From the NCBI GenBank assembly GCA_963797555.1, contig CAWCPV010000014.1, positions 352,001 to 416,000 on the forward strand: a stretch of DNA of 64,000 nucleotides, written 5' to 3'. Positions 9,718-11,418 of the stretch are shown one piece after another. A model generated the notes under the pieces. It was not told the DNA's origin, made no database searches, and saw only the letters and a list, made by a program, of their open reading frames with translations. Position 1 is the stretch's first letter; every line of letters begins with the position of its first letter. The position numbers and the translations under genes are program-made. Source of the stretch: an uncultured Gammaproteobacteria bacterium (GTDB lineage Bacteria; Pseudomonadota; Gammaproteobacteria; CAWCPV01).

Positions 9718-9829
9718 CCCAGTGTCCTCCGGCCTTAGGATCTCCCAGGCCCCTGTCGCTACCTTCAAGAGGTTAGACCTTCCCCTTGTATGTTCATCTT
9801 GTATGTTTATGGATGGGTTGAGATTTAGA

Positions 9830-9970
9830 GTGAGAGAGGTTCAGGACCTGGCAGATCGTCCCTGCCTGGGTGGCAAACACCGTGGGAGAGCTTGGTCGTC
9901 AGGTCCATCGTCTCTGAGTAACCCGAACGGTTGCCTGGGTCAGCGAGCCGGTATCTGCAAGGTTGGGAGC
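9830..9970 (+). ncRNA. putative bridge RNA of IS110
   Basis: stem GGACCTG/CAGGTCC enclosing ATCGTCCCT and GGGAGAG; second loop with ACGGTTGC and CAAG matching the donor junction. Confidence 0.75.
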
Positions 9971-9977
9971 CAGAGCC

Positions 9978-10934
9978 ATGAACACCAACAACGCTGAACA
10001 GTTTGTCGGAATCGATGTGTCCAAGCAGACCCTCGATGTCGCGACCTGCCCTGAGGGGGAGCATTGGGTGGTCAGCCACGATACGCGGGGTATGGCGGTG
10101 CTGGTCAAGCGTCTTGAGCGCATTACTCCAGCGCTCATCGTGCTGGAGGCCACCGGGGGCCTGGAGGTGCCTGTGGCGGCGGCGCTCGCTGCCGTGAAGC
10201 TCCCGGTGGTGGTGGTCAACCCGCGCCAGACGCGCGATTTCGCCAAGGCGACTGGCAAATTGGCCAAGAGCGATAGCATCGACGCACACCTGCTGGCCCA
10301 GTTCGCCCAGGCGGTCAGACCGCCTCTGCGGCCTCTCAAGGACGCCCAGACCCAGGAGCTGGAGGCACTGCTGGGACGCAGGCGCCAACTGCTCGACATG
10401 CATACTGCCGAGCACAACCGCCTGGGGAGCGCTTCCAGGGGCGTAGCCAAAGACATCCAGGCACACCTCCTCTGGCTGGAGAAGCGCCTGAAGGACCTGG
10501 ACAAGGAGCTTGCCCAGGCCATCCACGACAGCCCCGTGTGGCGCGAGCAGGATGATCTGCTGCAAGGTGTGCCGGGGGTCGGACCGGGACTGTCCCGCTC
10601 TCTGATTGCGGAGTTGCCGGAGTTGGGCACACTCGACCGCCGCAGCATCGCAGCCCTCGCCGGCTTGGCACCCTTCAATTGCGACAGCGGCAAGTTCCGG
10701 GGCAAGCGCCGCATCTGGGGTGGACGCGCTGCCCTGCGTGCCGCCCTGTACATGGCCACTTTCAATGCCGTGCGCTGCAATCCGGTCCTCCGACTCTTCT
10801 ACCGGCGCCTGACAGCCGCCGGCAAAGAGCACAAGGTCGCCATGGTGGCTTGCATGCGAAAGCTGCTCACCATCCTCAACGCCATGGTCAAAAACCACAC
10901 ACCGTGGAACCCTGCACTCGTCTCTTGCACTTGA
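9978..10934 (+). CDS. IS110 DEDD recombinase
   Basis: VGIDVSK, LEATGG, KSDSIDA, PGVGP, GLAP..DSG and MRKLL motifs; intact. Confidence 0.95.
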
Positions 10935-11418
10935 CAGCAAACACGGTTGCTCTCCCGATCTCTCACCCGCCGCCGCGTACAAGCCCCTAGGAGCCCTGAA
11001 CGCCCCCACGGCCTAGCCCCTTCTATTGCTCACCGTCTCAGATGGGCTTGTAGGCCGTCTCAGGCGTTGATCCCAGACATGATCTGAGGAGTACGCCTGG
11101 TGCGCGACGCGTAAATACGACCCCAAGAAACGAAAGCCTATGGGAATACGGGCTCTGCACAGAGGGTAATGGACGTGGCCCCACTCGCCGACCCATTTGT
11201 AAACCTGTGCACTCGACGATACTGCTTGCTCTCCACGGTGATACCCGCAGTGCCCGGCTGGCTCAACAAAGAGGCTTGGAGCGCCGTCATGTAGGTAGCG
11301 CGACCGCGCCGATCAACCGCGGGAATCGGTGCGCCTGGTACCTGGTATGATTGAACAGCGGGGATACAAGCACCCTGTCCCCGGCAACGGAAGATCCGGC
11401 AAGAGGCGGAGAGCCTTG

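Follow-up and report, generated by a model that had tools for sequence, protein, structure and literature searches.

An IS621-like insertion sequence with a predicted bridge RNA in the genome of an uncultured gammaproteobacterium

The stretch of DNA considered here (the window) comprises 64,000 nucleotides (nt) from an uncultured Gammaproteobacteria bacterium (assembly GCA_963797555.1, contig CAWCPV010000014.1, positions 352,001 to 416,000 of the forward strand). Between positions 9785 and 10951 of the window lies an insertion sequence with a long non-coding left end, a recombinase gene and a short right end. This element very probably (about 0.88 by our estimate, from its sequence) belongs to the IS110 group of the IS110 family and works like IS621 of Escherichia coli, using a bridge RNA with a target-binding and a donor-binding loop. 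Bridge-RNA-guided IS110 elements are a known kind, and the element in the window is an ordinary further member. It is called copy A below; the same genome holds a second copy (copy B). The features of copy A are listed here, where "family" refers to relatives of the element, "model" to a covariance model built from them, and "empty-site contig" to a contig from metagenome run X5 that lacks the insertion.

9778-9784, plus strand: left target flank (LT) CCTTCCC, directly left of the core CT and placed by the empty-site contig
9785-9797, plus strand: outer copy of the left end, CTTGTATGTTCAT, with the core CT first and TATGTT at 9789-9794; inside the insertion according to the empty-site contig, absent from copy B
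9798-9810, plus strand: inner copy of the left end, CTTGTATGTTTAT, with TATGTT at 9802-9807; matches the family left end CT-TGTAT(C/G)TT and aligns with copy B
9840-9969, plus strand: predicted bridge RNA core with target-binding and donor-binding loops (model score 85.8 bits, E 2e-19, full model length)
9844-9857, plus strand: outer stem of the target-binding loop, 5' strand; 9844-9852 pairs with 9898-9906 and 9854-9857 with 9894-9897, A9853 being bulged
9859-9867, plus strand: predicted left target guide (LTG) UCCCUGC-CU in the family register; the model alignment fills the guide slot without insertion
9869-9881, plus strand: inner hairpin of the target-binding loop, GGUG-GCAAA-CACC (model alignment, single-sequence fold, helix 2)
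9883-9890, plus strand: predicted right target guide (RTG) UGGGAG-AG, with family covariation and with 9884-9890 reverse-complementary to CT-CTCCC
9891, plus strand: predicted handshake nucleotide of the target-binding loop, C, complementary to the last right-end base G
9894-9906, plus strand: outer stem of the target-binding loop, 3' strand (pair counts, model alignment, single-sequence fold)
9927-9935, plus strand: predicted left donor guide (LDG) ACGGUUG-CC, sharing its first 8 nt with the right end
9937-9950, plus strand: inner hairpin of the donor-binding loop, with G9950 in place of the family C, G9937 unpaired and a mismatch in the model alignment
9952-9961, plus strand: predicted right donor guide region, UAUCUGCAAG
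9962, plus strand: predicted handshake nucleotide of the donor-binding loop, G, complementary to the C at position 7 of the left target
9978-10934, plus strand: recombinase gene, 318 amino acids, DEDD RuvC-like and Tnp domains (PF01548, PF02371, NF033542)
10931-10936, plus strand: TTGACA, -35 box of a predicted junction-formed promoter, overlapping the stop codon; the promoter would come into being solely through fusion of the two ends
10943-10951, plus strand: right terminus ACGGTTG (left donor arm, LD) plus core CT (10950-10951), by homology with copy B and the right ends of relatives
10952-10957, plus strand: right target flank CTCCCG, outside the element and present in the empty-site contig

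The product of the recombinase gene matches DEDD_Tnp_IS110 (PF01548, 4e-23) and Transposase_20 (PF02371, 7e-17) in Pfam, and it scores 227.7 bits against a cut-off of 140 with the NCBIfam model NF033542, "IS110 family RNA-guided transposase." The closest solved structures are those of the ISCro4 transposase (9t56, E 4e-46) and of IS621 (8wt6, E 2e-44). D13, E57, D99, D102, S237, and G238 align to D11, E60, D102, D105, S241, and G242 of IS621, and these include all five catalytic residues, whose roles have been described for IS621 (PMC11208158). The predicted open reading frame (ORF) and its catalytic residues are intact. As a separate observation, residues 137-311 are weakly matched by the NCBIfam model NF052498, "TIGR-Tas system RNA-guided endonuclease," with a score of 23.9 bits where the cut-off is 100; a preprint ties IS110 transposases to Nop5-family proteins (10.1101/2024.06.21.599552).

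Relatives of the element were collected from two sources. The genome contigs scanned contributed 80 loci (L005-L084) with 54-63% protein identity, many of them multi-copy, and the metagenome contigs scanned contributed 80 further loci (L102-L181), the best with 68%. After removal of near-duplicates, 35 distinct left ends from genomes and 53 from metagenomes were available (88 in all), and they include multi-copy elements in Dehalococcoidia, Nitrospinales, Nitrospira and other metagenome-assembled genomes. Closer copies were also sought in 60 genomes of the same class, where DNA matches were only 65-77% identical (6 of 61 genomes match, the window's own included); one genome there, flagged as unpublished, bears on no claim made in this text. 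Outside this genome, no copy above 68% protein identity occurs in the contigs scanned, save for fragments in sequencing runs X5 and X12. Comparison of copies fixed the termini in 11 multi-copy sets as CT-TGTAT(C/G)TT on the left and TTGACA...AC(A/G)GTTG-CT on the right, and the ends of the window element agree with both. The relatives share its termini, RNA architecture and junction promoter, whereas target guides and flanks are particular to each lineage.

The CT core dinucleotide is found at both junctions (9785-9786 and 10950-10951), with no target duplication beyond it, and the relatives agree in this. The left end (9785-9977) measures 193 nt, and the right end past the stop codon (10935-10951) measures 17 nt. 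A long non-coding left end and a short right end define the IS110 group; the arrangement is reversed in the IS1111 group, which carries its bridge RNA in a long right end and has sub-terminal inverted repeats of 7-17 bp (PMC11208160). Membership of the IS1111 group was ruled out on the 17-nt right end and the position of the RNA in the left end, inverted repeats not having been separately searched. The genome contains three insertions, namely copy A, copy B and a decayed, internally deleted remnant on contig 15 (C15). CT-CTCCCG follows all three on the right and the sequences diverge after it. The element therefore ends at 10951, and the extent of 9785-10957 given in a preliminary description of this DNA had taken in the target flank (10952-10957).

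On the left side, the boundary is set by the contig from run X5, which joins 9786 to 10955 with CT between them and thus represents an empty site with a single CT and its flank. It follows that the outer left-end copy (9785-9797) is part of the insertion. A boundary at 9798, where the alignment with copy B starts, was considered and rejected, both because the empty-site contig breaks at 9786 and because the rebuilt motif CCC-CT-CTCCCG requires a boundary at 9785. The two left-end copies form a 13-bp tandem duplication (9785-9797 and 9798-9810, 12 of 13 positions identical) that the preliminary description had not mentioned. The duplicated segment repeats both the right-donor-guide site (CT-TGTAT) and the -10 hexamer, and copy B is without it. 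The outer 13-bp copy carries a C where the related element in run X5 likewise has a C (loose end at 9839). The duplication may stem from slippage or be the trace of an earlier event.

The left ends of the family share one order of parts: a conserved outer stem, AGACCG, nine variable nt, one nt, a short hairpin, G, eight variable nt with AG as the last two, a C that never varies and the strand that closes the stem. The second loop of the alignment contains AC(A/G)GTTGC... and ...GCAAG. A covariance model built from 35 relatives alone, with the window's copies left out, gives copy A a score of 85.8 bits and copy B one of 94.7 bits, and these are its sole two matches in the 5.3-Mb genome (20 contigs, 84.6% complete). 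A candidate at 40864-40996 of the window on the minus strand (12.6 bits, E 0.096) was treated as noise. On the alignment of 37 sequences, a structure of 25 pairs has 95.9% of its cells paired, and 17 of the 25 pairs are changed on both sides. The outer stem of the target-binding loop (helix 1) accounts for 13 of these pairs, 11 with changes on both sides and 96.6% of cells paired. None of 500 shuffles reaches any of five pairing measures, and slid controls are 37-49% paired, although the structure was derived from the same alignment that scored it, which favours it. The predicted two-loop fold is clearly supported by these compensatory changes across relatives. The stem between GGACCTG (9844-9850) and its reverse complement CAGGTCC (9900-9906), from which the preliminary description had started, is part of this fold, and all other strings quoted there were also found where they had been placed. 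Its general proposal of an IS621-like element of the IS110 group with a bridge-RNA layout is borne out by the covariation, the relatives-only model and the protein profiles.

In IS621, the left target guide has the sequence of the top strand of the left flank and core, and the right target guide is complementary to the core and right flank (PMC11208160). The right guide of copy A can be read directly with this rule. GGGAGAG (9884-9890) is the reverse complement of CTCTCCC (10950-10956) at 7 of 7 positions, and the flank concerned is common to the three insertions. In the relatives, the slot of the right guide agrees with the flank at 4.58 of 6 positions in genomes (n = 26; shuffled 1.65 ± 0.25) and at 4.70 of 6 in metagenomes (n = 47; shuffled 2.02), a level reached by none of 2000 shuffles in either set. 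This half of the preliminary reading holds.

The left guide had been read as AUCGUCC-CU (ATCGTCCCT, 9855-9863), with ATCGTCC-CT-CTCCC as the preferred target. The string is present, lies within the outer stem and ends in CU, and it begins with AUC like the wild-type target of IS621, ATCAGGCCTAC (PMC11208160). However, GAUCG (9854-9858) belongs to the outer stem as its conserved 3' part and aligns to the family consensus AGACCG, and 9854-9857 pairs with 9894-9897; the guide is formed by the next nine nt. The two registers, which lie four columns apart, can be compared in two independent sets of loci. In the family register, the left guide agrees with the left flank at 4.73 of 7 positions in genomes (n = 33; shuffled 2.30 ± 0.22) and at 4.35 of 7 in metagenomes (n = 52; shuffled 2.64 ± 0.14), and none of 2000 shuffles reaches either value. 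In the upstream register, agreement is at the shuffled level, with 1.79 of 7 against 1.68 in genomes (reached by 441 of 2000 shuffles) and 1.50 of 7 against 1.62 in metagenomes (reached by 1848 of 2000). The sequences are kin to each other, and so the shuffle counts overstate significance; the contrast between registers is unaffected. Thus, ATCGTCC-CT-CTCCC is wrong on its left half. It also has no site within one mismatch in the genome, and the left flank of neither copy fits it. The poor fit of copy A's own flank ACCTTCCC (9777-9784) had been conceded at the outset, and the alignment of copies that had been proposed as a check upheld the right half (CT-CTCCCG at all three insertions) and not the left. 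We regard the upstream register as hardly credible. In the family register, the predicted target of copy A is TCCCTGC-CT-CTCCC. Guides read from a single sequence can be a few bases out of register, and it is the relatives that fix the register. Some relatives have a left guide that is off by one base, with the core-binding CU one position earlier (L012, L013, L081, L009, L037, L083, L072 and several of L102-L181); the register of the loop is therefore not fixed across the family.

The donor-binding loop can be read in the same way. The first eight nt of the left donor guide (ACGGTTGC, 9927-9934) are identical to the right end at 10943-10950, as the preliminary description had noted, and the seven non-core nt of this guide equal the right end in all 28 relatives compared. 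CAAG (9958-9961) is complementary to the left-end CTTG (9785-9788), again as noted before, and GCAAG is nearly invariant in the family. Further 5', beyond CAAG, the register of the right donor guide is tentative; in IS621, the pairing of this guide is discontinuous (PMC11208160). The nucleotide 3' of each core-binding AG in IS621 acts as a handshake guide by pairing with position 7 of the other DNA (PMC11208158). Both nucleotides can be recognized in the window. C at the slot of 9891 is invariant in the family, and so is the G at position 7 of the right end in all members whose right end is known. For the nucleotide after CAAG (G9962 in copy A), 29 of 33 relatives have a Watson-Crick match to position 7 of the left flank and three more have G:T, a result that none of 5000 shuffles reaches.

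Fusion of the two ends at a single CT places TTGACA and TATGTT 17 nt apart. Of the 75 distinct relatives for which both ends are known, 67 keep the spacing TTGAC-17 nt-TATNNT across the junction, in agreement with the promoter that had been predicted to form on circularization. Transcription, RNA binding and recombination are projected here from the work on IS621 onto the anatomy, homology, stem and guide covariation and empty site described above. The element would be excised as a circle, in which the right end meets the left end via a single CT core to create the sigma-70 promoter TTGACA-17-TATGTT. From this promoter, the left end would be transcribed into a non-coding bridge RNA of roughly 170 nt, and the recombinase mRNA would come after it. 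In the donor-binding loop, the left donor guide ACGGUUG-CC (9927-9935) would recognize the right end, and the right donor guide (to 9961, CAAG) the left end CT-TG.... The recombinase (DEDD residues D13, E57, D99, and D102; serine S237) would cut next to CT and exchange strands, after which C9891 and G9962 would each pair with the other DNA.

The likeness to IS621 (8wt6) thus extends to a DEDD and serine recombinase with aligned catalytic residues, a long left end with a two-loop RNA, the CT core, the left end CT-TGTAT, a left target guide of nine nt and a right target guide ending in AG. It also extends to the strand rules of the guides (PMC11208160), the handshake nucleotides (PMC11208158), the junction promoter and the type of target, a repeat hairpin. 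Unlike IS621, the window element is known from sequence alone. Its protein is distant from that of IS621 (phmmer E 2e-44, residues 8-311), its right target guide pairs over seven nt (five plus core) rather than four, its guides and target (CCC-CT-CTCCCG) are other ones, and its left terminus is duplicated over 13 bp. Among solved structures, the best match (E 4e-46, residues 8-311) is ISCro4 (9t56), which was compared by protein alone and whose domains come in the same order. ISPpu10 of Pseudomonas putida has been described to enter a conserved GC-rich intergenic stem-loop repeat (preprint 10.64898/2026.03.19.712850). Copy B and the remnant are likewise found in a repeat, whereas copy A is outside it; this likeness is drawn from the description of ISPpu10, without sequence comparison.

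The repeat in question is REP-like and has the form ...TCCCTCACCCCTAGCC-CT-CTCCCGC-nnnn-GCGGGCGAGGGGG, with copy B and the C15 remnant sitting at its 5' foot. Examples of this intergenic repeat (...CATGACCGGTTTCCCTCACCCCTAGCCCTCTCCCGC-nnnn-GCGGGCGAGGGGG...), which has an imperfect hairpin, can be found outside the window at C14:3391, C14:42113, C9:139487, C3:37389, and C4:632157. Its 5' arm is also the motif CCC-CT-CTCCCG. Although copy A lies outside such a repeat, with no hairpin partner seen in its right flank, its site rebuilds CCC-CT-CTCCCG. The genome has 26 sites with CCCTCTCCCG, nine of them with a CCCTCACC-like upstream part of the repeat. The REP-like repeat is the predicted preferred landing site of the element.

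Copy B (locus L002) lies on the same contig as copy A and is 95% identical to it, with homology beginning at 9798 and 63 differences in 1157 aligned columns. The identity is mosaic: 443 identical columns run over the RNA end and the first 40% of the ORF, and the other 714 columns hold all 63 differences, which suggests gene conversion or recombination between the copies. The differences of copy B from copy A include a +1 frameshift near codon 154 and a 3-nt deletion.

Several observations weigh against an IS621-like element in working order. Folded as a single sequence, 9840-9969 is not unusually stable (z = -1.12; 27 of 200 shuffles fold equally well), and the single-sequence fold recovers the target-binding loop but departs from the family model in the donor loop. 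G9950 stands where 34 of 35 relatives and copy B have C, and so breaks a stem pair for which 34 of 36 distinct sequences have G-C. Rfam 15, searched at permissive thresholds over 9600-11200, gave no bridge-RNA family, the only matches being a weak antisense one to sX15 and two at chance level. The empty site is supported by one contig with a depth of 7.27 and 37 nt on its shorter side, which was placed at 88% likeness and is one C short of the exact excision product. With only two copies and one remnant, and with the ORF of copy B frameshifted, the genome gives no clear sign of recent activity. A consensus scan of the integrated element (9600-11100) found no sigma-70-like promoter, which is not proof of silence. 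This result fits, without proving it, expression from the circle junction, and only weak bridge-RNA expression has been reported for integrated IS621 (PMC13626964). The sequencing runs carry at most 0.22 of the element's words and were available as contigs only, so that gaps in them carry no meaning; the one contig in the RNA library X12, about 88% identical to the element, is not usable as a sign of transcription. Finally, the left guide of copy A (TCCCTGC) matches its own flank (CCTTCCC) at only 2 of 7 non-core positions, the core CU fitting. Of the "intact programmable recombinase" in the preliminary description, the ORF and catalytic residues are thus intact, but the RNA has a stem pair broken by G9950 and a left guide that misfits its own site.

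A poor fit of this kind is found in some relatives as well: among 33, five have a guide-flank fit of 2 or less, and four of these are one-base register shifts. For copy A, one-base shifts of the left guide against its flank, judged by eye, gave no fit. The loop of copy B is one C longer (UCCUUGCCCU), and its guide, counted back from the inner hairpin, reads CCUUGCC, which fits the flank of copy A at 6 of 7 positions, its own flank (CCTAACC) at 5 of 7 and the CCTAGCC form of the repeat at 6 of 7. Copy A might accordingly have inserted under a copy B-like guide and drifted since, losing one guide base and gaining G9950, so that its RNA may be impaired. The fit of its flank to the copy B guide rather than its own points this way, as do the near-exclusive C of the relatives at 9950 and the lower model score of copy A (85.8 against 94.7 bits). 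The state of the sister copy, with the better RNA and the ORF frameshifted near codon 154, in a genome with only two copies and a remnant, is also consistent with decay. Conversely, the ORF of copy A is intact with all catalytic residues, its loop has canonical length, one broken pair need not abolish function, and an unoccupied variant of the REP-like repeat (C16:141778) matches the predicted target of copy A at 13 of 14 positions. Drift is thus a tentative explanation, with the odds against it.

The missing base could also be an artefact. The contigs from X5 and X12, like copy B, have one more C after 9864 and one more G after 9893, and at both places copy A has a run of C or G that is one base shorter. 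An assembly homopolymer error would give a true guide of CC(C/U)UGCC-CU, the form seen in copy B and the metagenome relatives, with a fit of 5-6 of 7 to the flank, in line with the fits of the copy B guide to both flanks and to the repeat. However, the loop of copy A already has the canonical length, copy B being the one that needs an insertion in the covariance-model alignment, and both lengths of the 3'-side spacer occur in relatives. Such an error is somewhat unlikely.

A third explanation takes the mismatch at face value, as a "half-match" insertion led by the right target guide alone, with the left half poorly matched. Insertions of this kind have been reported for IS621 (preprint 10.64898/2026.08.31.748434), the right half of the site is perfect (7 of 7, core included) against 2 of 7 on the left, and the site of copy A is outside the REP-like repeat. 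A copy B-type guide accounts for the flank without such an event, which makes a half-match unlikely, although it is inseparable from guide drift with the present data; the same holds for all three explanations, homopolymer error included.

Copy A may also represent a natural re-programming of the guide by an indel, in which one lost base shifted the register, giving the new left target TCCCTGC in place of CC(C/T)TGCC, and the right guide was kept. This is improbable on the sequences at hand. If true, the intact recombinase of copy A would be pointed at the still-empty variant C16:141778 (13 of 14), and one-base register shifts, which are seen also in several relatives, would be a route to new targets. 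Within one mismatch of the respective 14-nt target, the genome has four sites for copy A (the variant repeat at C16:141778 among them) and 11 for copy B (six of them copies of the repeat).

Taken on its own, the IS621-like element carries little weight, bridge-RNA-guided IS110 elements having been described since 2024 and the NCBI protein model already naming an RNA-guided transposase. The 88 natural relatives, most with guide and flank and including the handshake covariation, are a possible small reference set for annotating environmental genomes.

The Rfam match to sX15 (RF02234) lies at 9834-9983 of the window on the minus strand (23.5 bits, below the gathering score of 55). Sub-threshold matches to sX15 were also found in 3 of 17 further loci scanned, at 1334-1479 of L042, 821-946 of L157 and 252-314 of L116, all on the minus strand, with scores of 23.5-38.2 bits when the window is included. 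In the window and in L042, the match covers the bridge-RNA core on the strand opposite to the bridge RNA. In reverse complement, the sX15 consensus shows the layout of the target-binding loop, with GGCCG followed by 9 nt, N, GGTC...GACC, G, 8 nt with AG at their end, and C. sX15 is a small RNA of Xanthomonadaceae; sX15 and asX7 are described as complementary plasmid transcripts with 10 homologues in Stenotrophomonas maltophilia K279a (PMC3300014). Nothing on bridge RNAs was found in a literature search on sX15 and Xanthomonas, which did not combine sX15 or asX7 with "bridge RNA." Judged by this layout, asX7 may be an IS110 bridge RNA and sX15 its antisense strand.

To the left of the insertion, a gene of the OmpA family (PF00691) with a glycine-rich GGGGWHGGGG repeat region occupies 9016-9768 on the minus strand. 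It starts at least 17 bp from the element and is transcribed away from it. The element parts this gene from its former upstream region, and the site is empty in the X5 relative.

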